From the NCBI GenBank assembly GCA_040753215.1, contig JBFMEZ010000025.1:74440-138439 (forward strand): a stretch of 64,000 bases of DNA. The letters are read 5' to 3'. This DNA is from Candidatus Micrarchaeota archaeon. GTDB lineage: Archaea; Micrarchaeota; Micrarchaeia; Anstonellales; Bilamarchaeaceae. Both the position numbers and the translations under genes were made by a program. Below are positions 3,006 to 59,544 of the stretch, piece by piece (the stretch's first letter is position 1; each line of letters opens with the position of its first letter). Under the pieces are notes generated by a model. That model saw only the letters and a program-made list of their open reading frames with translations. It was not told where the DNA came from and searched no databases.

Positions 3006-3770
3006 TCAGTTTTCGGTTCCCTATTTCCAGTTCCGCCCGTTCCCTTCCTCTTCTTCAGGAAAAATATGTACTTCTCCGCCCTCTCCAATCTGCCCTTCAG
3101 CCTTCTCACTTCCGCATCCCTCGCCACCTCCCCAACCCGCGCACTCCTTGCCCTTCTCAGCTCCGCCTCCAGCCCGTCCGCCCTCGCCTTCTCGTATTCC
3201 AGCGCCTTTCTAAGATTTGCATTCTCCTCCGCCAGTCTTGCAACCCGTTCGTCCCTCCTGCCCGATGCCCCCTCTCTTTTCACTTCCTTCTCTTCTTCCG
3301 CCACCCTCTTCTCCTCCTTTCTCGTCAGCATCAGTTCCGCATTGTGCAGAGAATACCCCTGCACAACCATATGCTTCAATAAATCCCTGTCCAGCGCAGT
3401 ATCCATCCCCTCAATCTGCCTCAGCCGGTTCTCATACGCGTGGTAGGCCTTCATCGCGCCTGCGTATGCATCCCTTATGTGCACATCATCAATGAACCTG
3501 CCCATTTCCTTCTTCTCCTCCTGCGTGAGGCTCCGCTCAGGATAAGACAACCGTACATTGAACCTTGCAGCCACCTTCTGCACAAAGCTGGGAGGCGGAT
3601 TCACATCGCTCGCAATCAGGGAAGGAACGCCCACCTTCCTTATGATTTCCACAACCCTCTCGTCGCTTGCCTCCTTCTCGCATCCAGAGGCAACAAGCTC
3701 GCCTTTCAAATTGAGTGCCGCAAAAGCCGTATACACGCCCGGGTCAATGCCAACAATGAGGTGTTGTATC
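3002..3770 (-). CDS. RNase H-like (RuvC/YqgF-fold) domain protein with C-terminal coiled coil (DUF460-like)
   Basis: The IGIDPGV motif lies just upstream of the first GTG/ATG, and the C-terminal half is an E/R/K-rich coiled coil. No canonical start codon precedes the catalytic motif; the in-frame candidates are ATT/CTC. Confidence 0.4.
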
Positions 3771-5064: not shown

Positions 5065-6402
5065 CTAAACAGCCTTCCTTATTATTTCCCTCGCCTTCCC
5101 CGCAACCTTGTCCAGCAATTCCTTATTCTTCGCTTCGGCCGTCAGTCTGATTATGCTTTCAGTTCCGGAAGGCCTAACAAGAACCCAATACCCTTCTCCA
5201 TCTATCCGTATCCCGTCCCCGGTTTCCAGTTTCCAGTTGCCGGTTTCCCGTTTCCAGCCTGATTCAAGCTCCGGCATTATCCTTTCCATCGCCTTTTTCC
5301 TGTCCGCAGTCTTATACTTCTCCCTGACCATTGGATTGGGTTTAAACCGGGCCGCAAGCGCACTGAATTTCCCTTTCTCACAGAACATCTCCACAAACTT
5401 CGCGGCAGCCATTACCCCATCAGGCACAAGCACTCCCCCCCTAAAGATGTACTCCCCAGCCGGCTCACCGCCAAAGACCCCCTCGCTCTTCACCATCTCC
5501 TCGCTCACATGCACGCTCCCCACAGAAGTCAAAACAAACTCCACCCCATTCTTCTCAACCGTCTCCTTCACAATGAGCGAGCTCTCCACCGTGCTCACCA
5601 CCTTCCCCTTCTTCTTTGCCAGCTCTTCCTCAATCATAAGCGCAAGTTGCACATCCGCATTCAAAAGCTCCCCTCTCTCATCCACAACTGCGCACCTGTC
5701 CGCATCCCCATCATGCGCAATGCCCAAATCCGCCCCGCATGCCCGTACCGCAGCAGAAAGCCAGGGCAGATTCTCCTTATTCGGCTCAGAAGGCCGGTTG
5801 AACCCCCTGGTTTCGCAGTTCAAGGATACAACCCTGCACCCCAGCTCCCTAAGAAGATAGGGCGTAACCACCGCCCCTGCCCCATTGCAGTCCACAACAA
5901 CCTTCGGCTTCTTCTTCGCAATCAGTTTCGCATCCACATTCCTCTTCACAAGTTCAACATATTCAGGAATTACATCCTCAACCCTCCTTCCCCCTGGAAA
6001 AGCCCCGTATTCCATCCCCTTTTCATATCTTTCCAGAACCCGCTTCTCTTCGTTTCTGCTTATCTCCCGCCCTTTTCTCATGAATTTCAAGCCATTATAC
6101 TCGGCCGGATTATGGGAAGCCGTAACCATCATCCCCCCGCACCCGAATTTCATGCTCGCAAAAGCCACTAAAGGAGTAGGCACAATCCCCAGCCCGATCC
6201 CATCATGCCCCGAACCCAAAACCCCACTCATGGCCGCAAAAGCCAGCGGAACCCCGCTCTCCCGCGTATCCCTTCCTATGCAGACATCTGATTCGGCAAA
6301 TGCATTTGCCATCCTTAACGCTAACTCAGGCGTAATCTCCTTTCCATAGATTCCCCTTATCCCCGAAGTCCCAAACATCGGTTTCCTATTCCCCAAAAGC
6401 AA
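5065..6402 (-). CDS. glmM: Phosphoglucosamine/phosphohexose mutase (GlmM/ManB family)
   Basis: The TASHNP phosphoserine motif, GIRG, and a C-terminal LVRPSGTE motif are present. A GTTTCC heptamer array is inserted in frame near the C-terminus (WKRETGNWKLETG). Confidence 0.8.
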   Translation of the reverse strand: MLLGNRKPMFGTSGIRGIYGKEITPELALRMANAFAESDVCIGRDTRESGVPLAFAAMSGVLGSGHDGIGLGIVPTPLVAFASMKFGCGGMMVTASHNPAEYNGLKFMRKGREISRNEEKRVLERYEKGMEYGAFPGGRRVEDVIPEYVELVKRNVDAKLIAKKKPKVVVDCNGAGAVVTPYLLRELGCRVVSLNCETRGFNRPSEPNKENLPWLSAAVRACGADLGIAHDGDADRCAVVDERGELLNADVQLALMIEEELAKKKGKVVSTVESSLIVKETVEKNGVEFVLTSVGSVHVSEEMVKSEGVFGGEPAGEYIFRGGVLVPDGVMAAAKFVEMFCEKGKFSALAARFKPNPMVREKYKTADRKKAMERIMPELESGWKRETGNWKLETGDGIRIDGEGYWVLVRPSGTESIIRLTAEAKNKELLDKVAGKAREIIRKAV

Positions 6403-8341: not shown

Positions 8342-8462
8342 GTTTCCAGTTTCCGTGTCTCTGCGGAGACAACTCCATGTTGCTTCGGCAACAACTGGCG
8401 AAGTTCTGCGGAACTTCACCATGGCAGAAACCCGCGGGTTTCCGCCATCGGGTTTCCAGTCA
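8341..8462 (+). repeat. Family A structured repeat (copy A1), flanked by GTTTCC heptamers
   Basis: A core of four consecutive hairpins: gtctctgcggagac, ttgcc-tc-ggcaa, gaagttc-tgcg-gaacttc, and atggcagaaacc...ggtttccgccat. It is near-identical to copies at 40809-40900 and 59453-59544. Confidence 0.8.
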
Positions 8463-9446
8463 TCTTTCTACGGTCGCGTTGTACCTCATCCCGTTCCAGA
8501 CTATCTTCACGTCCTCCCCTAGATAGTTCTCAATCACCGTTATGTTCCTCACGGTACCCAGGACCGCTGCGTTCTTCAGCGACTGCCTTGAATTTGTCCA
8601 GTCGGTTGCGCTCCCGCTTATCACAATCAGCTCCGGCTTCGTCTGGTCCATCATCCAGTTTATCTCAGTCAGCCCCGCGCCCATGCCGTGGTTCGGCCAC
8701 TGCACTATCTGGCACGGCCCGCTGAGCTGCGCGACCCTCTGCTGCGAGCCCAGTATGTCGCCCGTGAGCAGCACGCACAGCCCGCGGTCTTCAACCTTAA
8801 GGACAATCCCGTCATTATTCACGTCAAAGAACCTGTCCTCCCCCTTTATCGGGTTGAGCACGGTTATGTTTATCCCGTTCAGCACCGCACGGTCCCCTTC
8901 GCCAACAATCTTCAGGCTCTCTTCCCCAAGGTTCGCCAGGTAGGCGGCGTATTCCTGGCCCCCCTCCTCCGGCCTCCACACCTCCCCGAACCTGAACCTG
9001 TTGGACACGTACTCCAGCCCCCCATAGTGCTCAGGGTCATCGTGGGTTGAAACCACAAGCTCAAAATCGTCCACGCCCTTCTCCAGCAGCATGTTCACGA
9101 GTTTCTGCTGGCTTACAGAAGGCCCCCCGTCCACGAGTATGTCCGTGTCCCCTTTCTTTATGAGGACCGCATCCCCCTGCGTGTCCCCGGAGCCCACGTT
9201 GAAGAAATACACGTACAAATCCGTATTCGGCGTGCTCACGTACTCCGTGGCGCTCGCCTGCGGCGGGGTTGCGTTGCCCTGCGTGACCACAGTCCCCTCG
9301 CCCTCCCTTATCACAAGATAGCCGCCGGAAGCGTTTCCGGTTTCCGGTGTCCTGTTTCCGGTTTCCTGTTCTCCGGCAGGCGGCTGTCCGCCGCCGATGC
9401 AGCCCAAAACAAGCAAAAGAACCAGCCCGAATGCGATCCACTTCAT
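8460..9446 (-). CDS. Secreted metallo-beta-lactamase-fold lipoprotein (ComEC/Rec2-type MBL domain)
   Basis: Signal peptide with a lipobox-like LGCIGG. The MBL motifs LIDGG and HxHxDH-like STHDDPEH are present. An in-frame heptamer array after the signal peptide encodes ETGNRTPETGN. Confidence 0.6.
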   Translation of the reverse strand: MKWIAFGLVLLLVLGCIGGGQPPAGEQETGNRTPETGNASGGYLVIREGEGTVVTQGNATPPQASATEYVSTPNTDLYVYFFNVGSGDTQGDAVLIKKGDTDILVDGGPSVSQQKLVNMLLEKGVDDFELVVSTHDDPEHYGGLEYVSNRFRFGEVWRPEEGGQEYAAYLANLGEESLKIVGEGDRAVLNGINITVLNPIKGEDRFFDVNNDGIVLKVEDRGLCVLLTGDILGSQQRVAQLSGPCQIVQWPNHGMGAGLTEINWMMDQTKPELIVISGSATDWTNSRQSLKNAAVLGTVRNITVIENYLGEDVKIVWNGMRYNATVER

Positions 9447-18268: not shown

Positions 18269-18361
18269 CTGTAATACCTCTATAATGTAACCATGGTTAC
18301 ATGCCAGTTTTCAGCTTCCGGTCTCCAGTTTCCAGAACGGGAAACCCGAAACAGGAAACCA

Positions 18362-21378: not shown

Positions 21379-22452
21379 ATGCATGGTTCTATCACAGCCA
21401 GCGCCAGAGTGGTGCCTTCCCGCAATAGGAGCCTTCGCGGCAGGCCTCCGCTTGAAAATGTGGTCGCCGCGATCCTAAAGCCGGCGGGCCGCACGAAAGA
21501 AGAGGTGGCTTCCGCAGAGCAGGAGCTAGTCCAGAGGCGGGATTCCGGCAATTTGGGTAAAATCCGGCTTTGCTTGGCAATAAGGGCGATGGGGGCTGAG
21601 CCCTGCGACGCAAAGAAGGGACGCCTCGGCACCATTGTCCCGGATCACCTCCCGGACAGGACATTTGCAGAAGCTTGGGAGATGGTCCTCAAAAATATCC
21701 GCCTCATCGGGAAGTTTCTCTCCAGAATTCAAAATTTGCTAAAGAAATGCAACATCCCTGAAAAAGACGCCGAGCAGATACTCACCGAAAACATGTTCTG
21801 GGCCGCGCTTTTCCACGACGGCTCGAGAGCCGCATTCTCCACATACGCCATGGAATGGTTCAAGAGGGGCCGCACGGGAATCGTTGCAGAAGCAGGCCTC
21901 ATCACATTCCCGCACCACATAGTCACAGAGATGATAATGTTGGAGCGGTTCCGCGACAGGCACCCCCTCATGCCAGCGCACAGGATTGCAGATTGCCTGG
22001 ATATGGCTCCTGTGCGCGTAGAGAGGCTTATGCGCCTCCGCGGGCTCCGCGAATCATCCATACGCCCCTTAAATGCAGATACGCTTTTCAATTCCGACAC
22101 CCCTACCTTCAGGATGCACGAAACCCCGGACGAAACCCGCGGGGTGGTGCCCATAACGAGCTTCCCGCATGATGTGGTCGAGAAGATGAGGCCGCACCAG
22201 GAAGACGCTATCCTCAGGGAACAGCTCGACCAGAGCATGCGCAACGCCCTGCTGGTCCTGACTCCAAGGGAATCGCGGGTCCTGAAGATGCGCTTTGGGT
22301 TTGGAACGGGGGAAGGTGACACCTTCGAAGAAGCCGCCCGAAAGATGAACGTAACCAGGGAACGCATCCGCCAGATAGAAGCCAAGGCGCTGCGCAAGCT
22401 GTGGCACCCATCGCGCAGGTCTTTGCACCATTTCTTAGAGGATGATGATTAA
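21379..22452 (+). CDS. Bacterial-type sigma-70 (RpoD-like) homolog with degenerate region 2 and near-canonical region 4.2
   Basis: The C-terminus LTPRESRVLKMRFGF...VTRERIRQIEAKALRKLWHPSRRSLHHFLEDDD matches RpoD region 4.2 and even its C-terminal FLDD ending. Region 2.4-3.0 reads FSTYAMEWFKRGRTGIVAEAGLITFPHHIVTEMIML (compare FSTYATWWIRQAITR...RIPVHMIETINKL in RpoD). Region 2.1 reads EMVLKNIRLIGKF (compare EMVEANLRLVISIA). The first ~100 aa are unrelated to sigma factors. Confidence 0.65.
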   Translation: MHGSITASARVVPSRNRSLRGRPPLENVVAAILKPAGRTKEEVASAEQELVQRRDSGNLGKIRLCLAIRAMGAEPCDAKKGRLGTIVPDHLPDRTFAEAWEMVLKNIRLIGKFLSRIQNLLKKCNIPEKDAEQILTENMFWAALFHDGSRAAFSTYAMEWFKRGRTGIVAEAGLITFPHHIVTEMIMLERFRDRHPLMPAHRIADCLDMAPVRVERLMRLRGLRESSIRPLNADTLFNSDTPTFRMHETPDETRGVVPITSFPHDVVEKMRPHQEDAILREQLDQSMRNALLVLTPRESRVLKMRFGFGTGEGDTFEEAARKMNVTRERIRQIEAKALRKLWHPSRRSLHHFLEDDD

Positions 22453-22507: not shown

Positions 22508-22530
22508 TGCGGCCGCCGGGATTCGAACCC
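22508..22530 (-). other. Displaced 23-nt copy of the tRNA-Gly(TCC) 3' end (T-arm plus acceptor), an att-like duplication
   Basis: Identical to positions 23141-23163 of the intact tRNA. It is separated from the tRNA by the cdd cassette. Confidence 0.8.
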
Positions 22531-22534
22531 TCCC

Positions 22535-22629
22535 AAAAACGCGGAGGGGAGCGCCCCTCCCCATTTTTAGGGTTCATTCTGACCCTCCCCCAACTTCTCT
22601 TTGCAACCCTTTGCCAGTACTCCTTACGC
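22535..22629 (+). repeat. Family B repeat, copy B1
   Basis: It contains aaaacgcggaggggagcgcccctcccca (a near-palindromic hairpin), then ttctgaccctccccc, ctttgcaa, and ...actccttacgc. Nine other copies are present in the window. Confidence 0.8.
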
Positions 22630-22634
22630 AAGGT

Positions 22635-23024
22635 TCAATATGCCTTATCCCAAGGATATGGAAGCAGCTCCCTGAGTTTGGCTACTTTATTTTTTCCAAT
22701 AATAACTTCTGTATCCAGGTTTTCTTCACTAATCTGGCTCATGAACTCTCTGCACGCTCCACACGGAGGGATAATTCCATATTCCGAAACTGCCACTATT
22801 TTCTTTATTTTGTACTCCCCGTTCGTAACCATGGCAGCGATGGCACCCTGTTCTGCACAGAAACCCATGCCAGAGGCGGTGTCTATACTTACGCCCGAAT
22901 AAATAGTGCCTTTATTTGAAATTAGCGCACATCCAACATCCCCGATTGTGAATCCGTGTTTTATCTTTCTCGGCTTCAATATGGATTTGGCCTTCTCAAC
23001 CAGTTGCTCATCCGTTATTTGCAT
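22635..23024 (-). CDS. cdd: Cytidine deaminase
   Basis: The zinc-binding motifs CAEQGAI and PCGACREFM are present. The protein is ~129 aa, starting at MQITDEQL. The gene is markedly AT-rich (~40% GC) relative to its surroundings. Confidence 0.8.
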   Translation of the reverse strand: MQITDEQLVEKAKSILKPRKIKHGFTIGDVGCALISNKGTIYSGVSIDTASGMGFCAEQGAIAAMVTNGEYKIKKIVAVSEYGIIPPCGACREFMSQISEENLDTEVIIGKNKVAKLRELLPYPWDKAY

Positions 23025-23099
23025 GATTATTGCTCTTTCATCAAATTTTAAAGCCTTAATTCCACCGGTCTTTGACCAGCGGTAGTTCACAAACAAAGC

Positions 23100-23140
23100 A
23101 CGGATACCGAAAACCCAAAACGGGAAACAGGAAACTGTTT
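23100..23140 (-). terminator. T-rich GTTTCCN heptamer array immediately 3' of tRNA-Gly(TCC)
   Basis: On the transcribed strand it reads aaaacagtttcctgtttcccgttttgggttttcgg, with several oligo-T runs. An equivalent array follows tRNA-Gly(GCC) at 38521-38559. Confidence 0.5.
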
Positions 23141-23211
23141 TGCGGCCGCCGGGATTCGAACCCGGGTCGTTGGCTTGGAAGGCCAAAATCCTACCGCTAG
23201 ACTACGGCCGC
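23141..23211 (-). tRNA. tRNA-Gly (anticodon TCC)
   Basis: Cloverleaf: acceptor GCGGCCG/CGGCCGC, D-arm TAGTCTAGCGGTAGGA, anticodon stem ttggc/gccaa with loop cttCCaa, and T-arm GGGTTCGAATCCC. CCA is not encoded. Confidence 0.85.
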
Positions 23212-23287: not shown

Positions 23288-23334
23288 TCTGCATCGCTGC
23301 GGCGATGTCTGGCGAAGTTCTGCGGAACTTCACC
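23288..23334 (+). repeat. Family A repeat, partial copy A2
   Basis: It contains the gcatcgctgcggcgatg hairpin followed by tctggcgaagttctgcggaacttcacc. Confidence 0.6.
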
Positions 23335-23396
23335 ATCGCTCGGCGCAAAAAGGAGCCCAAAAACCTCAAGCTCCTTTACCTCATTTCTCTCTACGT

Positions 23397-23448
23397 TTCT
23401 GACCCCCTCCCACTTCACTTTGCAACTCTTTGAACGTACTCCTTACGC
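23397..23448 (+). repeat. Family B repeat, partial copy B2, upstream (on the minus strand) of tRNA-Gly(TCC)
   Basis: Reads ttctgaccccctcccacttcactttgcaactctttgaacgtactccttacgc. Confidence 0.7.
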
Positions 23449-23500
23449 GTGGGGTTCAGTATTTATATTATGGCAAGAGAAGAAAATTAAAAGACCGCGC

Positions 23501-35214: not shown

Positions 35215-35238
35215 AGCCCCGGAGGGGGATTGAACCCC
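35215..35238 (-). other. Displaced 24-nt copy of the tRNA-Thr 3' end (T-arm plus acceptor)
   Basis: Matches positions 35871-35894 of the intact gene. It is followed directly by B-family copy B4 (35241-35333). Confidence 0.75.
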
Positions 35239-35240
35239 TC

Positions 35241-35333
35241 CAAGAAGAAGGGGGAAGGCGTTCCCCCCTCTCTTTAGGGTAATCATACCCCCCTTCCACT
35301 TCACTTCGTCACTCTTTGCACGTGCTCCTTACG
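35241..35333 (+). repeat. Family B repeat, copy B4
   Basis: Reads aagaagaagggggaaggcgttcccccctctctttagggtaatcata...cttcacttcgtcactctttgcacgtgctccttacgc. Confidence 0.75.
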
Positions 35334-35375
35334 CCCGACCGAAAGAGATTAAATCCACGCCCCAGAACATCTCGT

Positions 35376-35867
35376 ATGCAGATAATCATAAGGAAAGCCC
35401 GCCCGGGCGACATCGAACTGCTCGCGCCCATGTGGAGGGAACTCACCAATTACCATACTATTCTCGCAGCCAGAAATCCGGCAAGAAAAGAGTTTACCGC
35501 AATGGTCGGAAACGCAGAATCACTATGGAGAAAGTGGATTCTGAAATGGATTCGCTCGCCCAACGGGCTCGTGCTGATAGCGGAGCATGCCGGCAAGCCA
35601 GTCGGTTATTCCTTCAATTTCATCAAGAAATCCAATCCGGTGTATCGCGTAAATAAGATGGGCTGCATGAGCGACCTTTACGTCGCACCCGGCTACCGCA
35701 ATAAAGGAATTTCCTCACGATTCAGGGACGAAGCATTCAAGTGGTTCAGAAAGAAGGGCTTGAGGCACGCTTGCATAGGCGCCCACGGCTCCAACAAAAG
35801 AGCCCTGAGCATTTATCGGAAATGGGGTTTCTTCGACTTCTCAGTTGATCTAAGAAAGAGGATATAA
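35376..35867 (+). CDS. GNAT family N-acetyltransferase (cassette cargo)
   Basis: Acetyl-CoA binding motif region GYRNKGISSRF. The protein is ~163 aa starting at MQIIIRKARPGD. Confidence 0.7.
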   Translation: MQIIIRKARPGDIELLAPMWRELTNYHTILAARNPARKEFTAMVGNAESLWRKWILKWIRSPNGLVLIAEHAGKPVGYSFNFIKKSNPVYRVNKMGCMSDLYVAPGYRNKGISSRFRDEAFKWFRKKGLRHACIGAHGSNKRALSIYRKWGFFDFSVDLRKRI

Positions 35868-35870
35868 CCA

Positions 35871-36078
35871 AGCCCCGGAGGGGGATTGAACCCCCGACCT
35901 CTCGCTGTCCCGTTTCCGGTTTCCGCATCTCTGCGGAGATGACTCCGCTTCTCTGCGGAGAAGACTGGCAGAATCCTTCGGGATTCCGCCATGGCAGAAA
36001 CCTGCTGGTTTCCGCCATCCTGTTTCCAGTTCCGAACCGGATTACGAGGCGAGCGCTCTACCGCTGAGCTACCGAGGC
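35871..36078 (-). tRNA. tRNA-Thr (anticodon CGT) with ~136-nt intron (about 35906-36041) in the anticodon loop at or near position 37/38
   Basis: Exon 1 reads GCCTCGGTAGCTCAGCGGTAGAGCGCTCGCCTCGTAA and exon 2 reads GCGAGAGGTCGGGGGTTCAATCCCCCTCCGGGGCT. The anticodon stem is ctcgc/gcgag with loop ctCGTaa. The intron contains a family-A repeat copy. Confidence 0.7.
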
Positions 36079-40790: not shown

Positions 40791-40808
40791 CCAGTCCCCC
40801 GTTTCCAC

Positions 40809-40900
40809 ATCGCTTCGCGATGACTCCATGTTGCCTCGGCAACAACTGGCGAAGTTCTGCGGAACTTCACCATGGCAGAAACCTTCCGGGTTTCCGCCAT
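40809..40900 (+). repeat. Family A repeat, copy A4, overlapping the 5' end of the PHP gene
   Basis: Reads atcgcttcgcgatgactccatgttgcctcggcaacaactggcgaagttctgcggaacttcaccatggcagaaaccttccgggtttccgccat. Confidence 0.8.
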
Positions 40901-41538
40901 CCAGTTTCCCGAAGCTAAACATTGACTTCCACGTGCACACCTCCTTCTCTTCGGATGGAAGGATAAAATTAGCTGAACTCGCCTCCCTTTCCAAACAATT
41001 CGGAATAATCCCCGCCCTCACCGACCACAACAACATGGATGCCTGCTCCCCCTTCAAAAAATTCGAAATCCCCTTCATCCCCGGAGAGGAAATCCGCGTT
41101 GCACAGGGCGATTTCATAGGCCTCTTCCTCTCCGAGCCGATTCCTGAAGGGATAGATTTCTACGAAGCCCTCGACTTAATCCGTGCGCAGGGAGCCCTCG
41201 CTTATGTCCCGCACATGTTCGACGCACTCCGCCCCGGAGTAGTAAAGGAGGAATACGGAAAAGCCGCAGACATAATAGAAGTATTCAACGCCCGCTCCTT
41301 CGCCCGCTTCGACAGGCAGGCAGAAGAATTCGCCAAAAGGGAAGGCAAATTAATGGCGGCAGGAAGCGACGCCCACTTCCCGTTCGAATTCGGGCACACT
41401 TATACCGAATTAAGCCTCACCCCAGACCAACTGGAACCCAAATCTCTTCTCCGCGCTTTAAAGAATGCGAGAATAGCAGGAAAGCGCACTTCTTTTCTCA
41501 AGAGGAAAATAGCGAAATATACCGGAATCTACATCTAA
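40828..41538 (+). CDS. PHP-domain phosphoesterase; the only in-frame ATG lies inside repeat A4
   Basis: The PHP motif begins at LNIDFHVHTSFSSDG, with a later GSDAH motif. No ATG/GTG/TTG lies between the repeat and the first His motif. The annotated N-terminus MLPRQQLAKFCGTSPWQKPSGFPPSSFPK is therefore repeat-encoded. Confidence 0.6.
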   Translation: MLPRQQLAKFCGTSPWQKPSGFPPSSFPKLNIDFHVHTSFSSDGRIKLAELASLSKQFGIIPALTDHNNMDACSPFKKFEIPFIPGEEIRVAQGDFIGLFLSEPIPEGIDFYEALDLIRAQGALAYVPHMFDALRPGVVKEEYGKAADIIEVFNARSFARFDRQAEEFAKREGKLMAAGSDAHFPFEFGHTYTELSLTPDQLEPKSLLRALKNARIAGKRTSFLKRKIAKYTGIYI

Positions 41539-42509
41539 AGGAACTCCCTAATCGGGTTCAGCATCCTCTCTTCTATCGCAGAAATATATTTGTGGTTCCC
41601 AATCACATGCCCGAATTTGGTCTTTACCCCGCTTATGAACCTGTGCAGCTCAGCCGTATTCTCCACAATCACATCCACCTCAATGTCCCAGCTCCCTATG
41701 CACTTGTTCAGGAACACCACATTATCATGCTCAAGGCAGAAGCCCAGGAACTCCTTCTCCTTTTCTCTCGTAATGCTTCTAAAGTTTATCAAAATCTTAT
41801 AGTACTCAAACCCCATCCTCTTCGCATCAAACCACGCCGTATACCCAAGTATGAACCCCTCTCTAGTAAGCCGGTCCATCCTATACCTCACCGCATCAGG
41901 GGTGAGCCCAACCTTCCCAGCCAAATCCACCGTCGTCGCCCTCGCATCCCCATACAATGAAGCCAGTATCTTCATATCCGTTTCATCCCGCTTCTCTGCC
42001 TCCACCACCCTCTCCAGCGGGAACTCCGGGTGCCTCTCCCCTCCCACCGCCCTGTTCCACGATAAATATGTCTGGTACGTAGTAGTGACGACCGTCTTCT
42101 CCACAATCCTCGCCCCAAACCTTTCCGTCATCATATTTATCGCATCCTCCACCTCCTTCTCGTCCCTCGCTACAATCCTCCACAGCACGTCATACGCCCC
42201 CTCGCATACCACCCCCCAGAGCGTCCGCTTGTAGGATTCGAACAGCGCCACCACCTCCTTCTCCGCCTTCTCATCGAACACGTCAAATCTCAGGTAAATC
42301 CTGTATGCCTTGAAGCCCAGCTTCGCAAGGTTGACGTCAGCAAACAGCAGCGATATTGTGCCCGCCTCTCTGAGCTGCCTCATCCTCCGCTCCACTGCGC
42401 TGCTGCTCATCGGGGCGGTAATCCAGATGCTTTGACATTTTCTTTCTTTTATTTTTTCTGCATTATAATGCATAAAAATATGCAAAATTGTTTCGATGCT
42501 TTCCACCAA
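41535..42509 (-). CDS. Tandem-duplicated Lrp/AsnC family transcriptional regulator (two HTH_AsnC plus RAM units)
   Basis: Two HTH_AsnC segments (SSSAVERRMRQLREAGTI and ARATTVDLAGKVGLTPDAVRYRMDRLTREGFILGY) are each followed by a RAM-like domain. Confidence 0.65.
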   Translation of the reverse strand: MVESIETILHIFMHYNAEKIKERKCQSIWITAPMSSSAVERRMRQLREAGTISLLFADVNLAKLGFKAYRIYLRFDVFDEKAEKEVVALFESYKRTLWGVVCEGAYDVLWRIVARDEKEVEDAINMMTERFGARIVEKTVVTTTYQTYLSWNRAVGGERHPEFPLERVVEAEKRDETDMKILASLYGDARATTVDLAGKVGLTPDAVRYRMDRLTREGFILGYTAWFDAKRMGFEYYKILINFRSITREKEKEFLGFCLEHDNVVFLNKCIGSWDIEVDVIVENTAELHRFISGVKTKFGHVIGNHKYISAIEERMLNPIREFL

Positions 42510-42613
42510 TTGATACGCATTCTATTAAATCAATTTGAACAAATGACCATCAAAATATGAAATCAATTTTATAAAATGCATATATTTAAAAGGAATTAGC
42601 CCGTAATACTTAC

Positions 42614-43816
42614 ATGGACCAGGAACTCATTGAACTCAACAACGAAGCAAAAAAGGAAGGCAAAAAATACGCAAAAAAAAGGTTCATCTACCCGAAAATA
42701 GCCGCAGGGCTGGCGGAGCGCGAACACACTGCCCTCGTTGGCCCGAGGGGCGCGGGGAAGACAATCCTGCTTAAGCAGCTTCTTGCGGGCAACGAAAGCG
42801 CATTCTATGTTTCACTGGACACCTCAAGGATAGAAGGCGGGCTGTTCAGGCTTGCAAAAGAGCTATCGGATTCCGGCATCAAGCTGCTCCTTCTGGACGA
42901 GATACACGGCTATCCCGGCTACGATTTGGAGCTCAAGAGGATTTACGATTTCCTGGGAATCAAGATTGTCTTGACCAGTTCTTCTGCCCTTACCCTCCAC
43001 GAGCTGGCGGCCGACCTCTCCAGGAGGATGCGCATCATAAAAATCAGGCCGTTCTCCTTCAGGGAATACCTGTTCTTCCAGAACGATGAGCTGCTGGAGC
43101 CCCTCAGCTTCGTGCAGTTATCCGATGAGAAATCTTCACGGGAATATCTGGGCAGAGCCCTCCATGCTGAACCCCGCCTGGAAGAATACATGAAGGGAAG
43201 GAATTATCCGCTGGCGCTCGGGAGGCAGGATTTCCTGCCGTTGTTCAGGAACATCCTTGAAACAGTCATAAACAGGGACCTGATCAGGACAGGGAAGGTC
43301 AGCCACGACGAAACCCTCCATATCGCCAGGCTCGTGGCATATCTCGGCAAATCCCATCCGGAGGATATGAACTACACATCCATTGCAAAGAACATAGGCA
43401 TAAGCAGGCATATGGCCGAAAAATACGTGGGTCTGCTGGAAAAGGCATTCGTGTTGCATGTGGTGCCGCCGGAAGGGCAGGGCGTCATGAAGGAGCCCAA
43501 GGTGCTCATTGCCCTCCCGTACCGCCTCCTCTATCGCCCATACGAGGAGTGCATCGGAGCCCTGCGCGAGGACTTTTTCGTCGATTCTGCCGTCTGGCTC
43601 GGCTTCGGCCCAAAATATCTCAAAACCAACCGTGGGGAAAAAACCCCGGACTATGCGATTGACGATACGGTTTTTGAAATAGGAGGACCAGGCAAGGGGC
43701 ATTCCCAGTTCAAGGGGTTCGCACTGAAGAGGAAGATAATACTGACACATCCCGGAATGCTTGATGCAATGCGCCGGCCACTATTCTTCATGGGCTTGCT
43801 GGAAGAAGGGCAGTGA
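42614..43816 (+). CDS. AAA ATPase of the AAA_14/DUF4143 family (COG1373)
   Basis: Walker A reads GPRGAGKT and Walker B reads LLLDEIH. A C-terminal DUF4143-like domain is present. Confidence 0.7.
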   Translation: MDQELIELNNEAKKEGKKYAKKRFIYPKIAAGLAEREHTALVGPRGAGKTILLKQLLAGNESAFYVSLDTSRIEGGLFRLAKELSDSGIKLLLLDEIHGYPGYDLELKRIYDFLGIKIVLTSSSALTLHELAADLSRRMRIIKIRPFSFREYLFFQNDELLEPLSFVQLSDEKSSREYLGRALHAEPRLEEYMKGRNYPLALGRQDFLPLFRNILETVINRDLIRTGKVSHDETLHIARLVAYLGKSHPEDMNYTSIAKNIGISRHMAEKYVGLLEKAFVLHVVPPEGQGVMKEPKVLIALPYRLLYRPYEECIGALREDFFVDSAVWLGFGPKYLKTNRGEKTPDYAIDDTVFEIGGPGKGHSQFKGFALKRKIILTHPGMLDAMRRPLFFMGLLEEGQ

Positions 43817-43920
43817 CCAGGGAAGATATCCGCAGATTTGCAGCCTCAGATTGTCGGTTATGGAAGGAAAAAATCCGCAAAAGTTTCCTTCCATGTTAGA
43901 CGCCTTATAGCATCGTTTTT

Positions 43921-44122
43921 CACTGAACCTCCACGGCTCGGTCACACCTTGTAGTCGCCTGCGTGGCGGCGATAGGTCTGCCTAGCCATTGGGTGCGGCT
44001 ACAAGGTGTGAGGAAGCCTCGGCATTTATGCCGGGGAGGAGAGCCGAGGCTTCCTCTAAAGGCAGCAGGAATACATCTGCCCTTTATCTACGAAGAAGCC
44101 ACGGCCTTTAGTGGAGGTTCAC
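43921..44122 (+). repeat. Family C ~200-nt structured repeat, copy C1
   Basis: 99% identical to 46120-46325. The ends (cactgaacctccac...gtggaggttcac) are inverted-repeat-like and can pair. It has internal hairpins (gaggaagcctcggc/gccgaggcttcctc and caccttgtag/ctacaaggtg). Confidence 0.8.
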
Positions 44123-44186: not shown

Positions 44187-44882
44187 CTATTTTTCTCCAA
44201 CCACAATCGCAAAATTAGCTAAAGGTGGCACCAGCACCCGTGTTTTTCTGAACCCAAACCCATCCATAATCTTCTTCAGCTCAAGTGGGCAGATAGGGTA
44301 TTCCTTCGGATGCTTTTCCTGGTACTCCTTGCTCATGCCTTTCAGCGCCTGCGCCCAGCTCCGGTCGAATTCTCTTGCCCTTTTTGGATTCTTCTTTCTT
44401 AATCTCCAAACTTTTTCCTTATACTCGCTACTGGGCTTAAACCAGTCCCCTATCACCAGTCTTCCGCCTTCACGAAGAGACTTCCGTATCCGGGAAATAA
44501 CAGCCGCCTTATTCTTCACGTGATGAAAAGCGAGGTTGGAAACCACATAATCTGCACGCCCGCCGAACCCCTCTATCGGAGAAGCTTTGAATTTCATATT
44601 CTTAATTCCAGCAACCCTAACCTTCCCCATTGCTACCTTCATCATGCCTTTGGAAACATCCACGCAAGTTACCTGCGCCTTCGGCTTCCTCTCCGCAAGC
44701 CTTATGGCAAGCCCTCCACTCCCGGCTCCCAGGTCCGCCACCCTGCATTTCCGGTCCGGAACCTCCCTTATTATGTTGTCCACAAGCCATCTGTAAAACA
44801 AGTATTGGTACCTGTCCTGCTCTTCGTACTCTTTCGCGTATTTATCGAAGAACTCCTTTGCCTTTTTCACAATCAAAACCAC
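44187..44882 (-). CDS. Class I SAM-dependent methyltransferase
   Basis: SAM motif I reads VADLGAGSGGLAI. The start is a GTG that overlaps the stop of the displaced fen-1 tail. Confidence 0.75.
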   Translation of the reverse strand: MVLIVKKAKEFFDKYAKEYEEQDRYQYLFYRWLVDNIIREVPDRKCRVADLGAGSGGLAIRLAERKPKAQVTCVDVSKGMMKVAMGKVRVAGIKNMKFKASPIEGFGGRADYVVSNLAFHHVKNKAAVISRIRKSLREGGRLVIGDWFKPSSEYKEKVWRLRKKNPKRAREFDRSWAQALKGMSKEYQEKHPKEYPICPLELKKIMDGFGFRKTRVLVPPLANFAIVVGEK

Positions 44883-44945
44883 TTATCCAAAGTCCGCTGG
44901 CTCCGCGTCTCCTTCACGTTGCTCATCATCCCTTCCAGCGCCTTC
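44876..44945 (-). other. Displaced duplicate of the fen-1 3' end (last 22 codons, ending in a canonical PIP box)
   Basis: It encodes ALEGMMSNVKETRSQRTLDKWF*. The current gene end is EGMLSNVKETRSQRTLDKWL*. Nucleotide identity over 70 bp is about 70%. Confidence 0.75.
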
Positions 44946-44951
44946 TCCCGG

Positions 44952-45020
44952 AAAAACGCGGGGAACCCAGGTTCCCCCCATTTTTACCGTTTATTCTGAC
45001 CCCCTCCTAACGGTTTTCAG
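44952..45020 (+). repeat. Family B repeat, short copy B7, lying between fen-1 and its displaced 3' end
   Basis: Reads aaaaacgcggggaacccaggttccccccatttttaccgtttattctgaccccctcc. Confidence 0.7.
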
Positions 45021-46054
45021 AGCCACTTATCCAATGTTCGTTGGCTTCTTGTTTCTTTTACATTGCTTAGCATTCCCTCTAAAGCTCTTTCTACCCTCTC
45101 CCTTGAGAAATCGTGCTCCTCCACCAACAATTCTATTACTCCCTCCCTGCTCGCCTTCCCCCACCCCAGCTCTCCGACCTCCTTCACTGGCGGGCTCATG
45201 AAAAAACCGAAAATCGCCTCCACATCCTCAGGAAACTCATATCCCTTCTCCTTCTTCAAATATGCCCTCACCTTCTCCAGCGTATCATTCTCTTTCACAA
45301 TCTTCAGACCGGTTTTCGGCCCAATCCCCCGCACCCCTTCATTGAAATCCGTTCCCACAAGAATCCCAATCAAAATCAATTGCTCCCTCTTCAGCCCAAG
45401 CGCCTTCAGCGTCTCTTCCAGCTCCACCCTCTCAATCTCTATATCTATGAACCTATTCTGCTTCGGCACCTTCCTTTTCCCGGTAATGGACAAATTCCTC
45501 AAAAGCACCGGCGACCCAAATAGAACCGAATCATAATCCTGCGATGCGGCCGCATAGCAAAGCCCTGTCCCCACCATCCACGCTGCCTGCGCCTCCCCTT
45601 CAGAGGGCGCCTGCACCCAGGGAATCCCCATCAGTGAAAGCAGCCTCTTCCCCTCATCCACCATCTCCTTGGTGAGCCGCGAGCTTGCCTGCGCATATTT
45701 CCTCGCCTCCTCAATTTTCTCCTCCGCAAGCGCCTTCTTCCATTTGTGCTCCGCCTCCCTCCGCACCTCTATCCTTTCCTCTATAGTTTTCCTCTTGAAT
45801 TCCGGCGGAGGCCCGTCAAACACATAAATAGGTTTTATCCCAGCATTCACCAATCTTATGCTCCTGTAAAATAGCCCAGATAAATGCCCGGTCACCCGCC
45901 CCTTCATATCCATTAAGGGCGTCCCGTCCTCCTGCCTTATGGAAGCCAAAAATTGATAGAGTATATTCATCCCATCTATCGCTATGCTCTTTCCCGCAAG
46001 CTCCTCCAGCTCGACCTTGTGCTTAATTGCAAGGTCGCCCAAATCTACTCCCAT
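45017..46054 (-). CDS. fen: Flap endonuclease 1
   Basis: The XPG-N and XPG-I motifs and the N-terminal sequence MGVDLGDLAIKHKVELEELAGKSIAIDGMNILYQFL are present. The C-terminal PIP-like box reads QRTLDKWL. Confidence 0.9.
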   Translation of the reverse strand: MGVDLGDLAIKHKVELEELAGKSIAIDGMNILYQFLASIRQEDGTPLMDMKGRVTGHLSGLFYRSIRLVNAGIKPIYVFDGPPPEFKRKTIEERIEVRREAEHKWKKALAEEKIEEARKYAQASSRLTKEMVDEGKRLLSLMGIPWVQAPSEGEAQAAWMVGTGLCYAAASQDYDSVLFGSPVLLRNLSITGKRKVPKQNRFIDIEIERVELEETLKALGLKREQLILIGILVGTDFNEGVRGIGPKTGLKIVKENDTLEKVRAYLKKEKGYEFPEDVEAIFGFFMSPPVKEVGELGWGKASREGVIELLVEEHDFSRERVERALEGMLSNVKETRSQRTLDKWL

Positions 46055-46119
46055 CCTAATCCTCGCTTACCTATAATCAGGCATACTTTTATTTCTCTGC
46101 CTGCCGCAGCCGGCAGACT

Positions 46120-46325
46120 CACTGAACCTCCACGGCTCGGTCACACCTTGTAGTCGCCTGCGTGGCGGCGATAGGTCTGCCTAGCCATTGGGTGCGGCTA
46201 CAAGGTGTGAGGAAGCCTCGGCATTTATGCCGGAGAGGAGAGCCGAGGCTTCCTCTAAAGGCAGCAGGAATACATCTGCCCTTTATCTACGAAGAAGCCA
46301 CGGCCTTTAGGCCGTGGAGGGTCAC
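46120..46325 (+). repeat. Family C repeat, copy C2
   Basis: See copy C1. This copy ends in the perfect hairpin gccacggcc-ttta-ggccgtggag. Confidence 0.8.
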
Positions 46326-46872: not shown

Positions 46873-46932
46873 TTGCCAGGTGCGATGCCACTAATCGGTT
46901 CTCAGTTTCCGGCTCCCAGTTTCCAGAACCAT

Positions 46933-49348: not shown

Positions 49349-49467
49349 TTTTACCGCATTCATCCAACATTGATTACTGGCATTACTGGAACCGAGGTCT
49401 CCTTTTATTTAAAAATAGCCCCATATAAATACATATACAATAGAACATATATGGGGTTCTGAAAAAG

Positions 49468-49782
49468 GTGAAGAAAATGGAGGAAAGATTGGAGGAGTTT
49501 GAGGAAATAGAGGAGCCAAAAAAGGGGAGAAAGCCAAGTTCTGATGAGTCCGAATCCGCACCGAGCGAAAGCGTTGGCGCGAGGCCGGACTTCCGCGTGG
49601 TCCAGACCGAAAGGGATGCGGAGGGCAAGACAATATACAAGAACGTGGGTGGGCTCTGGAAGCGCACGAGCAAGAATGGAAACACATACTACAGCATGAG
49701 CATAGGCCGATTGAGGCTGCTCGTATTCCCTAACGACAGGGATGGTGGTTCTTATGGCAGAGAAGACAGAGAAGAAATATGA
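49468..49782 (+). CDS. Hypothetical acidic/basic small protein
   Basis: 104-aa ORF with a strong Shine-Dalgarno-like sequence (aaaaggtgaag) about 8 nt upstream. Confidence 0.4.
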   Translation: MKKMEERLEEFEEIEEPKKGRKPSSDESESAPSESVGARPDFRVVQTERDAEGKTIYKNVGGLWKRTSKNGNTYYSMSIGRLRLLVFPNDRDGGSYGREDREEI

Positions 49783-58487: not shown

Positions 58488-58882
58488 TTCTTCTCTTCCT
58501 TCTCCGGCCCTTTTTTGGATGCCTCCTTCCCTTTTTCCGGCGCTTCCTTCCCGTGCGCCTCTTTCGGGGCTTCCTCGGGCTCCTTCCCCTTTTTCTCTTC
58601 CTTCTTCGCCTCCTTCTTTTCCTCCGGCTTCTCGTCTATGAGGTAGGCCCTCACAACCCCCGCCTCCTTCACAGCCCTCATCTTCACCTTCCTGGGCGGC
58701 TTCTGCATCCCCCTCCGGAAAAGCAGCTCATTCGCCTTTTCGCTTATCTTCACGTCCTCCGCCTTCATGTGCCTTGAGAGGAATGAGCGCACGATCTTAA
58801 CGGCCCTCCTTGCCCTCCTCACCCTGGAGTAATCGTACGCCTTTCCCAGTGGTATCGTATAAATCCTTTCAAGCTCAGCCAT
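58484..58882 (-). CDS. rpl31e: Ribosomal protein L31e with Lys/Glu-rich C-terminal extension
   Basis: The protein begins MAELERIYTIPLGKAYDYSRVRRARRAVKIVRSFL and continues ...VKISEKANELLF. The tail is KEAKKEEKKGKEPEE.... Confidence 0.8.
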   Translation of the reverse strand: MAELERIYTIPLGKAYDYSRVRRARRAVKIVRSFLSRHMKAEDVKISEKANELLFRRGMQKPPRKVKMRAVKEAGVVRAYLIDEKPEEKKEAKKEEKKGKEPEEAPKEAHGKEAPEKGKEASKKGPEKEEKK

Positions 58883-58888
58883 GCTCTC

Positions 58889-58978
58889 ACTCCTCCCTAA
58901 AACGCGGAGGGGAGCGCCCCTCCCCATTTTGAGGGTTCATTCTGACCCTCCCCCATCTCCCCTTTCCATTGCTTTGCA
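58889..58978 (+). repeat. Family B repeat, copy B9, inserted between rpl39e and rpl31e and flanked by a 15-bp direct duplication (catgctctcactcct)
   Basis: The duplicates at 58870-58884 and 58977-58991 contain the rpl31e RBS/ATG and the rpl39e stop region respectively. Confidence 0.75.
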
Positions 58979-58983
58979 TGCTC

Positions 58984-59142
58984 TCACTCCTTAATCCTCA
59001 GCTTGCTGGTCCTCCATTCCCTTCTCCTGTTGTTCCAGAGGACCTTCCTTTTGGTCCTCACGGTGACGAATATCGGCATCCTCCTGTTCTGCCTGCCCGC
59101 CTTCGCGAGCCTTCTCTTTTTCAGTCCGCTCTTCTTTCCCAT
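58984..59142 (-). CDS. rpl39e: Ribosomal protein L39e
   Basis: Translates to MGKKSGLKKRRLAKAGRQNRRMPIFVTVRTKRKVLWNNRRREWRTSKLRIKE. It is below the ORF-track cutoff. Confidence 0.75.
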   Translation of the reverse strand: MGKKSGLKKRRLAKAGRQNRRMPIFVTVRTKRKVLWNNRRREWRTSKLRIKE

Positions 59143-59433: not shown

Positions 59434-59452
59434 ATAAGTCCCCAGTTTCTAT

Positions 59453-59544
59453 ATCGCTTCGCGATAACTCCATGTTGCCTCGGCAACAACTGGCGAAGTT
59501 CTGCGGAACTTCACCATGGCAGAAACCCCCCGGGTTTCCGCCAT
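59453..59544 (+). repeat. Family A repeat, copy A5 (between rps19e and the PDCD5-like gene)
   Basis: Reads atcgcttcgcgataactccatgttgcctcggcaacaactggcgaagttctgcggaacttcaccatggcagaaaccccccgggtttccgccat. Confidence 0.8.

Follow-up and report, generated by a model that had tools for sequence, protein, structure and literature searches.

A compositionally foreign cytidine deaminase gene between tRNA-Gly(UCC) and a copy of its 3′ end in a Micrarchaeota genome

A compositionally foreign, horizontally acquired cytidine deaminase-family gene (cdd) lies beside an intact tRNA-Gly(UCC) gene in the window (the whole 64-kb stretch of Micrarchaeota DNA analysed here), within a 0.63-kb unit bounded by an exact 23-nt copy of the tRNA 3′ end. 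The DNA fused to this stub is not specific to an element but is a lineage-wide repeat module, normally located just upstream of tRNA genes. The same type of scar, consisting of an intact gene, optional cargo, the palindromic module and a stub of the old gene end, is reproducible in the window, where two tRNA genes, FEN1 and closely packed operon-type junctions such as L39e/L31e all bear it. Our preferred reading, held tentatively and at a little short of even confidence, is a duplicative insertion, guided by homology or microhomology, of DNA ending at the palindrome, with the stub as the dead tail of the resident tRNA gene.

The tRNA-Gly(UCC) locus and its cargo

Read along the minus strand, tRNA-Gly(UCC) is succeeded by the heptamer tract, cdd, family B and the exact 23-nt copy, the order that the initial annotation had described, with every feature where it had been placed (Table 1). 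The direct repeat, TGCGGCCGCCGGGATTCGAACCC, is the 3′ part of the intact tRNA-Gly gene and bounds the insert. Shuffled sequences gave an expectation of 0 for such a match, and the sole further near match in the window is tRNA-Gly(gcc) at 38570 (1 mismatch). In tRNA orientation, the shared block opens at base 3 of the 5′ strand of the T-stem and closes at the discriminator, with a sharp loss of identity on either side. The repeat starts are 633 bp apart, the insert measures 610 bp, and cdd is the sole gene inside, which bears out the earlier description of a small unit encoding no recombinase. The 23-mer does not belong to a larger tandem tRNA array, the caveat attached to that description, and an orphan 5′ tRNA piece is absent from the window. 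The stop of a convergent Sigma70_r4 gene lies 55 nt from the distal stub.

Table 1. Positions of the features discussed, numbered from the first nucleotide of the window.
Feature	Position	Strand	Remarks
tRNA-Gly(UCC) gene, intact, 71 nt, without encoded CCA	23141..23211	−	ARAGORN; Rfam RF00005, 71.3 bits
23-nt repeat, proximal copy (part of T-stem, T-loop, 3′ acceptor strand, discriminator)	23141..23163	−	exact match
Host-type, terminator-like T-rich heptamer tract, CAGTTTC CTGTTTC CCGTTTT GGGTTTT	23107..23140	−	directly after tRNA-Gly(UCC)
TATA-like box CTTTAAAAT, putative leaderless promoter of cdd	23045..23053	−	~25 nt upstream of ATG, inside low-GC tract; predicted from sequence
Cytidine deaminase-family gene cdd, 129 aa	22635..23024	−	PF00383, 1.4e-9; PDB matches
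Family B box GCGTAAGGAGTAC...TTGCAAAG...GGGAGGGTCAGAATGA	22578..22632	−	begins at or within last cdd codons
Palindromic module: A-tract, GC stem-loop (22543-22560), T-tract, GGGAG	22531..22577	−	between family B box and stub
23-nt repeat, distal copy (stub of tRNA-Gly 3′ end)	22508..22530	−	exact match
Family B copy upstream of intact tRNA-Gly(UCC)	23397..23454	−	
tRNA-Thr(CGU), 136-nt anticodon-loop intron	35871..36078	−	proximal repeat is last 24 nt, 35871-35894
GNAT acetyltransferase gene, convergent on tRNA-Thr	35376..35867	+	3-nt gap to tRNA-Thr; GC3 0.62, host-like
Family B and palindromic module	35240..35337	−	88% identical to module upstream of tRNA-Thr
Exact 24-nt stub of tRNA-Thr 3′ end	35215..35238	−	followed by heptamer terminator tract
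FEN1: live 3′ end (GC3 0.36), module, stub of last ~25 codons (GC3 0.79)	44873..45100	−	
L39e/L31e: 82-nt module between genes, cargo-free	58880..58991	−	exact 15-nt duplication, 58880-58894 and 58977-58991

The families of the heptamer tract (D1, D3 and D12) recur after tRNA-Gly(GCC) and after the stub of tRNA-Thr. At the other end of the unit, the palindromic module has a terminator-like score on both strands, its A-tract holds a possible TATA (CTAAAAAT), and its GGGAGG end overlaps the stub by GG (a 2–3 nt G overlap, GG/GGG); judged by this overlap, the joint is a microhomology junction. An Rfam search of family B and the module returned nothing above noise, and a sigma-70-like site, as in a bacterial-type promoter, was not found in family B. 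Between the intact tRNA-Gly(UCC) and its upstream family B copy lie a different hairpin/T-run and a member of a 119-nt repeat family (matched over ~23288–23339).

The cdd product scored above the PF00383 gathering threshold, its translation contains the motifs CAEQ and PCGAC, and it matches solved tetrameric cytidine and blasticidin-S deaminases in the PDB; it falls below every NCBIfam equivalog cut-off. On these matches, it is predicted to be a cytidine deaminase of the tetrameric CDA/blasticidin-S deaminase group. The gene has a GC content of 43.6% (GC3 0.44) compared to 54.6% for the window (host genes, GC3 0.60–0.74) and lies within the lowest 0.8% of 390-bp windows by GC at the scale of the 64-kb window. 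The composition is thus atypical, as had been proposed, with a milder contrast than the ~40% against ~60% first given. The low-GC tract (~22640–23100) covers only the cdd ORF and its promoter, and leaves the heptamer tract and the B/palindrome segment outside.

The closest homologs of cdd (71–77% identity) are from low-GC DPANN/CPR genomes, and DNA homology between this and other cdd genes is confined to the ORF. In one genome (L002), a 77%-identical cdd adjoins a GNAT gene, with an integrase about 3 kb away, and in the Micrarchaeota genome L003 cdd follows tRNA-Gln without any repeat. Linkage of cdd to tRNA genes as a general rule was rejected (no linkage in L001, L002, L089 and L091; the linkage in L003 lacks the repeat), as was a viral or phage origin (best viral or phage identity, 30–42%).

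Recurrence of the module and of gene-end stubs

The B/palindrome module is also present upstream of tRNA-Gly(GCC), tRNA-Thr and tRNA-Asn, and between ribosomal protein genes. It lies 0–12 nt upstream of tRNA-Gly(GCC), of tRNA-Thr(CGU) and of tRNA-Asn on the JGI contig L086, and beside tRNA-Ala 3′ ends on L085. The copies at the tRNA-Gly stub and at L39e/L31e are 97% identical over 64 nt and have the GGGAGG end in common.

A second unit occurs downstream of tRNA-Thr(CGU), where the repeat copies start 656 bp apart and the order is GNAT, B and palindrome, 24-nt stub. The host-wide module is the sole part common to the tRNA-Gly and tRNA-Thr units, the cargo genes have opposite orientations, and both stub junctions fall at T-stem positions 50/51. 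A search of viral contigs for the tRNA-Thr core gave no match.

At protein-gene junctions, module copies were flanked by duplicated local sequence in all cases (4/4; 15/15, 11/12 and 11/13 nt, plus 63 nt at 75%), with the duplications at 57157/57280 and 63519/63665 being imperfect and short. Lengths across the loci are 12, 13, 15, 23, 24 and ~63 nt. As module copies away from tRNA genes are also flanked by a target duplication, such duplications are not specific to a tRNA-recognising integrase. The 15-mer at L39e/L31e contains the L39e stop together with the L31e SD and ATG, which indicates insertion of the module at this junction. The live tail of FEN1 is distinguished from its stub by 14 synonymous and 3 non-synonymous codons, and this near-synonymous recoding, with a GC3 of 0.36 compared to 0.79, suggests that low-GC foreign DNA and a module were imported and the resident tail left behind, the same logic as at cdd. 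The 192-nt repeats around FEN1 were considered as a large target duplication and rejected; they are two MITE copies with terminal inverted repeats.

Each tRNA stub is placed where a tRNA body would begin relative to the module, as would be the case if two neighbouring tRNA-Gly genes (e.g., UCC and CCC, with the same 3′ part) had each carried B/palindrome upstream, cdd had been inserted between them or was already there, and the downstream gene had lost nt 1 to ~50. Clusters of tRNA genes do occur in the lineage (Ser-Thr in the window, Ala-Trp-Ala in L085), tRNA-Gly(GCC) and tRNA-Gly(UCC) share the 3′ block save 1 nt, and the module at the Thr stub is closest to the tRNA-Thr module. However, a near-precise deletion (+1 to T-stem position 49/50) would be required twice independently, both stubs are 100% identical to their neighbours, yet the B boxes differ by 12–17%, and neither the FEN1 stub, with its recoded, low-GC3 live tail, nor the L39e/L31e duplication would be explained. 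We regard this tandem origin as quite unlikely.

The tRNA-type module that precedes the stub could also be taken as driving expression of the stub, either as the working 3′ part of a split tRNA or as a tRNA 3′ fragment produced for its own sake. Split tRNA genes are known in DPANN archaea (Nanoarchaeum), which provides a precedent, but an extra 5′ piece of tRNA-Gly or tRNA-Thr was absent from the window at ≤3 mismatches, the split position (about 50) is without precedent, a leader complementary to a partner is not evident, and the parallels at FEN1 and L39e/L31e concern non-RNA genes. Such a function is hardly credible. False duplications, produced by a metagenome assembler joining strain variants or repeats, would be conceivable for a MAG of a repeat-rich genome. 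Against this, typical final k-mers exceed the 23-nt repeat in length, the fusion of stub and module is not a product of simple bubble collapse, and at least four independent loci follow the same logic, including duplications that preserve the reading frame, making an artefact very improbable.

Module-ended insertion and integrase-based readings

Under the preferred reading of duplicative insertion, the incoming segment would have been copied or recombined in from a start inside tRNA-Gly, where the junction would be homologous and hence invisible. It would have contained the tRNA 3′ end, the host-type terminator tract, cdd under its own promoter and the family B box, and would have ended just past the GC-rich palindromic terminator module, where a 2–3 nt microhomology at the T-stem G-run may have served to join it back to the resident tRNA. 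With a complete tRNA tail supplied by the incoming DNA, the resident one could be displaced downstream and persist as an inert stub. The donor may have been a relative's genome or a different locus within the same lineage; homology-facilitated illegitimate recombination is one candidate mechanism, and break repair in which template switching stalled at the palindrome is the other. The fixation of cdd beside tRNA-Gly(UCC) would then be one instance of a recurrent, integrase-independent and duplicative insertion of module-ended DNA.

Joining of this kind is matched by the GG/GGG overlap at the joint, the GGGAGG end found also at L39e/L31e, the variable duplications and the recoded FEN1 tail. The heptamer tract and module are host-type, with low GC limited to the cdd ORF and promoter, and no recombinase was found in the window, both of which count in favour of module-ended insertion. 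The 82-nt insert at L39e/L31e is below the size at which DNA cyclisation would allow a circular integrase substrate. Palindrome stalling and 2–3 nt microhomologies would on their own be weak evidence, and further points count against this reading: the two independent junctions at T-stem 50/51 are where att blocks of the T-loop class begin, an integrase-linked block with a near-identical start exists on an environmental viral contig, and the flanking duplications at 57157/57280 and 63519/63665 are imperfect and short.

That IMG/VR contig (L100, UViG_3300031877_000006, 29.5 kb, about 45% GC) carries an orphan 24-nt copy of the tRNA-Gly block followed by CCA, without a tRNA, 1.5 kb from a PF00589 tyrosine integrase; the block starts within 1 nt of the block in the window. 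Integrases that use the tRNA-Gly 3′ end plausibly exist in nature. The search for a tRNA-Gly-linked integrase that had been suggested at the outset gave this candidate in the viral contigs and was negative in the window, where no PF00589 domain or other recombinase was found among the 32 ORFs scanned against Pfam and tblastn with the L002 and L100 integrases gave no match across the whole 64 kb. A comparison of L100 with the window beyond the tRNA-Gly block revealed nothing further in common.

A serious, if on balance unlikely, rival is that a plasmid or virus tyrosine integrase acted at a T-loop/3′-end att site of tRNA-Gly(UCC), so that the 23-nt core represents attL and attR, and that deletions and module-associated rearrangements then left only cdd between host-type arms in a unit that is now immobile. 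The repeat is an exact one reaching from the T-stem to the discriminator, and according to a review (PMC8371274) archaeal integrases favour the tRNA 3′ end and vary in their 5′ limits. The foreign composition of cdd, the L100 block beside its integrase and the cdd of L002, with its GNAT neighbour and nearby integrase, all fit such a history. Of the attL/attR signature claimed by the initial annotation, the exact repeat, the typical T-loop/3′-end att extent and the foreign cargo stand; its attribution to an integrase is weakened by the missing recombinase, by arms that both belong to the host lineage and by duplications at non-tRNA sites. Neither an integrase nor a fragment of one was found in the window, L100 shows no other similarity to it, and the tRNA-Thr core has no viral match. 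Element-specific sequence is absent at both repeat copies, since the tRNA-side arm is the heptamer tract and the stub-side arm the host-wide module, and both of these att-proximal arms are host-lineage repeats. As the module also abuts the tRNA-Thr and FEN1 stubs, the erosion of three unrelated elements would have had to stop exactly at the module each time; the alternative, that the module belongs to an element family, has no evidence.

An active, non-autonomous cassette, in which a 0.63-kb circle excises and re-integrates with an integrase supplied from another part of the genome or from a co-resident element, is improbable. The identical flanking repeats, the similar sizes of the units at two tRNAs (633 and 656 bp between repeat starts) and the integrase-linked matching site on L100 would suit it. 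The circle junction predicted for the unit (...GCGTTTTTGGGAG, GGTTCGAATCCCGGCGGCCGCA, AAACAGTTTCC, also written GCGTTTTTGGGAG, GGTTCGAATCCCGGCGGCCGCA, AAACAGTTTCCTG) and the module-core junction were, however, not found in viral contigs, a second copy of the cdd or GNAT cargo at another tRNA was not found, the units share only the host-wide module with cargo in opposite orientations, and homologous cdd genes elsewhere are not generally tRNA-linked or repeat-flanked. Nothing indicates that the unit is mobile today. The module could also be a MITE mobilised by a transposase with long, variable target duplications; no terminal inverted repeats, the mark of casposons and MITEs, are visible in the sequence at the insert ends or the module.

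An empty site in relatives would show tRNA-Gly directly followed by TTTGCTGTCAGC, with the second tRNA absent and a predicted junction of GGGTTCGAATCCCGGCGGCCGCA to TTTGCTGTCAGCAGTATGC. In a search for syntenic relatives by way of glutamine synthetase (GS), the best GTDB representative had 62% identity with no tRNA nearby, and no tRNA follows GS in L092 (82% identity, the closest found) or in L093–L095 (67%). The Sigma70_r4 protein was dropped as a lineage anchor, as a word-based search gave only itself and bacterial RpoD at 36%. With no empty site, donor locus or sister genome recovered among the relatives compared, we infer which donor and repair mechanism were involved and in which direction and order the events ran; the anatomy and its recurrence, the flanking duplications and the foreign cdd composition are observed directly.

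Relation to known systems and implications

As at archaeal tRNA-gene integration and gene capture sites, an intact tRNA, foreign DNA and a 3′ repeat starting in the T-arm occur with no surviving integrase ('gene capture in archaeal chromosomes' by tRNA-gene integrases; She et al. 2001, cited in PMC8371274). Unlike those sites, the locus has no integrase fragments and host-type arms, of which the stub-side arm is the genome-wide tRNA-upstream module, and the same scar occurs at protein-gene junctions with inserts down to 82 nt. Williams reportedly defined, in 2002, sublocation classes of integration within tRNA genes. The CIMEs of Firmicutes are att-flanked units without recombination genes that are mobilised in trans, and the present unit resembles them in being small, recombinase-free, bounded by attL/attR-like sequence and located at a tRNA gene; it differs in being archaeal and in that a cognate element or integrase, excision and other copies were not seen.

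Homology-facilitated illegitimate recombination is said to have been described by de Vries and Wackernagel in 2002, and the MMBIR/FoSTeS models invoke microhomology-mediated templated insertion. Both are similar to the present case in having one junction hidden in homology and the other at a 2–3 nt microhomology, in the variable length of the flanking duplication and in foreign DNA beside a homologous anchor. In neither, as described, is there a recurrent end point at one specific palindromic module, and we know of no demonstration of homology-facilitated or microhomology-mediated insertion in DPANN archaea.

Casposons make target site duplications of 14–15 bp, often at tRNA 3′ ends. Like them and like MITEs and IS elements whose target duplications are long or variable, the units combine short non-coding repeats with target duplications of 12–24 nt at tRNA gene ends; unlike them, left ends vary, duplications range from 12 to at least 63 nt, and no transposase or casposase was seen in the window. 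A single ORF followed by a structured palindromic element recalls integron cassettes, but IntI, attI and an array are lacking, cdd has its own TATA-like box, and integron cassettes insert without the target duplication seen here. Scattering of tRNA fragments by a mobile element is reported for Caldiarchaeum subterraneum (Sugahara et al. 2012, PMC3293823). The fragment in that case is 5′, with a recombinase gene in the 1.8 kb between; at the present loci the stubs are 3′ and joined to a promoter/terminator module, and the window yielded no recombinase.

On either the preferred module-ended insertion or an eroded integrase event, a repeat of the tRNA 3′ end is insufficient alone to establish an integrase cassette. 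The genomes of DPANN archaea are tiny, and these archaea rely on salvage pathways, in which cytidine deaminase is an enzyme; to our knowledge, how they gain single genes is little understood and integrated elements have seldom been documented in them. If an integrase event has eroded here, 'gene capture at tRNA genes' would be extended to Micrarchaeota and the site tied to an environmental element whose att site matches. More speculatively, and doubtfully at present, the module may be the business end of an undescribed gene-capture system in Micrarchaeota, recombinase-independent or trans-acting, in which palindrome-ended segments are inserted duplicatively at tRNA 3′ ends and gene boundaries, each supplying a stand-in for the gene end it displaces and, in some cases, one cargo gene (cdd, GNAT), a minimal cassette mechanism for genome-reduced symbionts. 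If the scars do reflect a specific process, it would constitute a compact route of gene acquisition that also inserts terminator/promoter units between overlapping genes without breaking them.

The cdd locus at tRNA-Gly(UCC)

The 23-mer TGCGGCCGCCGGGATTCGAACCC occurs exactly twice (chance expectation, none), within tRNA-Gly(UCC) and as a stub, an extra copy of the gene's 3' end, beyond the cytidine deaminase-family gene cdd; tRNA-Gly(GCC) has one mismatch to it. Read along the tRNA strand, this block begins at the third base of the 5' T-stem strand and reaches the discriminator; past either border, the two copies abruptly cease to be identical. Between them, the minus strand carries, 5' to 3', a T-rich heptamer tract, a TATA-like box ~25 nt before the ATG of cdd, the cdd ORF, the family B repeat box, and a GC-rich hairpin with an A-tract and a T-tract on its flanks. 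Every part named in the initial annotation was recovered in the order claimed. T-rich heptamer arrays (GTTTCCN; at least 12 copies in the window) follow genes and tRNAs and resemble a terminator signal of the lineage.

The 129-aa cdd product belongs to the cytidine/deoxycytidylate deaminase family (PF00383) and matches solved CDA and blasticidin-S deaminase structures, with a score below the NCBIfam equivalog cut-offs. Its atypical composition, also claimed earlier, was borne out in a milder form (GC, 43.6%, among the 0.8% of 390-bp windows poorest in GC; GC3, 0.44 compared to 0.60–0.74 in neighbouring genes), and the low-GC tract comprises only the ORF and promoter. The closest homologs (71–77% identical) belong to low-GC DPANN, CPR, and Bathyarchaeia genomes, with DNA-level homology ending at the ORF borders, and cdd was very probably acquired horizontally. 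Another Micrarchaeota genome (L003, 5861–6381) has cdd 66 nt past tRNA-Gln(CUG), where there is no repeat. On a Logan contig with 36% GC (L002, 1031–5986) a 77%-identical cdd directly follows a GNAT gene, with a tyrosine integrase ~3 kb away. A cassette mobilisable at present (other ALTERNATIVES) is very unlikely, as no second copy was found, no junction was found among viral contigs, and linkage to a tRNA is not the rule for cdd in other genomes.

The window is archaeal, as it encodes archaeal-type ThrRS, SecDF, L39e/L31e, TFE, and Nre, and tRNA genes without encoded CCA. Two of its proteins, those of cdd and the glutamine synthetase (GS) gene, have 100% identity to MEW5996843.1 and MEW5996845.1 (NCBI), both from a ‘Candidatus Micrarchaeota archaeon’ MAG (151,904-bp contig). 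An assembly artefact is highly improbable. A synteny search among relatives via glutamine synthetase turned up no sister genome in which the locus is conserved. Adjacent to the stub, this archaeal contig has a gene for a 357-aa product that carries a bacterial Sigma-70 region 4 domain (PF04545, 4e-17) and whose best database matches besides itself are bacterial RpoD (~36% identity); relatives L093–L095 also encode Sigma70_r4 proteins (399–454 aa) a few kb from GS. Further low-GC patches (minimum, 0.38–0.41), around an AsnC-type HTH gene, an AAA_14/DUF4143 ATPase gene, and the stretch just upstream of radA, may be other acquired DNA; the RadA/Rad51 gene itself is split by an intein carrying a LAGLIDADG domain.

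Positions of features in the window
Feature	Position	Strand	Remark
Sigma70_r4 protein gene	21379–22452	+	
23-mer, stub copy	22508–22530		
Low-GC tract of cdd	~22640–23100		
23-mer, tRNA copy	23141–23163		
tRNA-Gly(UCC)	23141–23211	-	
Second stub locus	35215–36078		
tRNA-Thr 3'-end copy	35215–35238		exact, 24 nt
GNAT acetyltransferase gene	35376–35867		after tRNA-Thr(CGU), convergent
tRNA-Thr(CGU)	35871–36078		136-nt intron
tRNA-Gly(GCC)	38570		
FEN1 locus	44873–45100		
MITE-like copies	43920–44111, 46119–46310		
L39e|L31e module locus	58880–58991		
~119-nt repeat	8342–8460, 40793–40911, 59437–59555		
~119-nt repeat, partial	23288–23339, 35912–36030, 63576–63625		
Low-GC patches	41441–42871, 49071–49641		
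RadA/Rad51 gene	49742–52252	+	
Heptamer arrays (examples)	1634–1669, 5207–5263, 9339–9374, 18306–18341, 46897–46932, 63074–63109		

A recurrent palindromic module

Rather than a random repeat, family B is part of a module, which it forms with the palindrome (A-tract, GC stem, T-tract). Of the window's four tRNA genes, three are directly preceded by this module (Gly-UCC, with a 119-nt repeat inserted between module and tRNA; Gly-GCC; and Thr-CGU), and tRNA-Ser has none. The module also precedes tRNA-Asn in JGI contig L086 and, with orientation reversed, adjoins the 3' ends of two tRNA-Ala genes in contig L085 (B box identity to the window, up to 98%). Palindrome structure is conserved through compensatory changes in 10 of 16 pairs and has a terminator-like score on either strand, and its A-tract CTAAAAAT could double as a TATA box. 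What the 23-nt copy is fused to is thus an upstream module of the tRNA type, and the pair looks like a tRNA gene without nucleotides 1–50; that it is a piece of a split tRNA is the least credible of the alternatives. The ~119-nt repeat is structured; one copy forms most of the tRNA-Thr(CGU) intron, another lies in the tRNA-Gly(UCC) leader, and another within a palindromic module, which suggests a mobile element able to reside as a tRNA intron.

A second stub locus has the same architecture as the cdd locus, in the order tRNA-Thr(CGU), GNAT, family B with palindrome, and 24-nt stub. The module is also found between protein genes, with duplicated local sequence on its flanks. At L39e|L31e, an 82-nt module, 97% identical over 64 nt to that beside the Gly stub, is bracketed by an exact 15-mer that holds the stop codon of L39e along with the Shine-Dalgarno sequence and ATG of L31e. 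It is clearly an insertion by which a junction of overlapping genes was duplicated. Both modules end 3' in GGGAGG, which overlaps the first G residues of the Gly stub. Two other copies have weaker flanking duplications (11/12 and 11/13 nt).

At FEN1, the last ~25 codons are repeated after the module, with 14 synonymous and 3 non-synonymous codon differences between live copy and stub. This synonymous recoding and the difference in GC3 (0.36 in the live tail compared to a host-like 0.79 in the stub) argue that the live tail was imported with the module and the resident tail left behind; the source would be diverged, lower-GC DNA. The FEN1 stub overlaps the start of a downstream methyltransferase-like gene, and two 192-nt MITE-like copies (99% identical; terminal inverted repeats CCTCCACGGC...GCCGTGGAGG) lie on either side of the FEN1/methyltransferase segment.

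Possible integrase insertion and proposed duplicative insertion

The initial annotation had read the 23-nt repeat as the attL/attR of an integrase. Archaeal integrases favour the tRNA 3' end, with varying 5' limits (review, PMC8371274). The exact repeat, with precisely the extent expected of T-loop/3'-end att sites, and the foreign cdd fit this reading, but a domain screen of 32 ORFs and an integrase search across the 64-kb window found no integrase, the arms beside both copies are host-type sequence, and one and the same module adjoins three different stubs. An IMG/VR scan with the 23-mer recovered only one contig (L100, UViG_3300031877_000006; ~45% GC), in which a 24-nt block followed by CCA (3285–3308, minus strand) stands without a tRNA as an orphan site within an ORF, and a PF00589 integrase (808–1776) lies 1.5 kb away. 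The block is a candidate attP for this tRNA-Gly, and integrases using this tRNA end probably exist; contig and window have nothing else in common. An eroded integrase event at tRNA-Gly(UCC) is possible, if on the unlikely side. That the stub is the relic of an isoacceptor tRNA gene once in tandem agrees with the module position, but this reading would require the same precise deletion twice, leaves FEN1 unexplained, and is improbable.

The loci share a common logic of complete gene end, optional cargo, module, and old copy of the same gene end, for which duplicative insertion is the most economical explanation, offered tentatively and with steps, donor, and palindrome role conjectural. The first junction would form within homology (tRNA or FEN1 coding sequence) and the second by microhomology just past the palindrome. 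Candidate routes are homology-facilitated illegitimate recombination with DNA of a related genome, or break repair on a homologous or homeologous template, in which synthesis would stall or dissociate at the GC palindrome and rejoin the broken end. Duplicative insertion would account for the foreign composition of cdd alone beside a host-type heptamer tract and module, the stub-module fusion, the variable duplication lengths (12–24 nt, and at least 63 nt at FEN1), and the existence of the 82-nt insert. At 82 nt, this insert is too short to serve an integrase as a circular substrate.

Compared to known systems, the cdd locus lacks the integrase and element-specific arms that define an integrated element, as well as the parts by which integron cassettes, casposons, and MITEs are defined. 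In its working it resembles ‘gene capture’ at tRNA genes and the scattering of tRNA fragments in Caldiarchaeum (PMC3293823). It fits best as a variant of recombinational gene capture at tRNA genes, unusual here in that the end point recurs at a palindromic module specific to the lineage.
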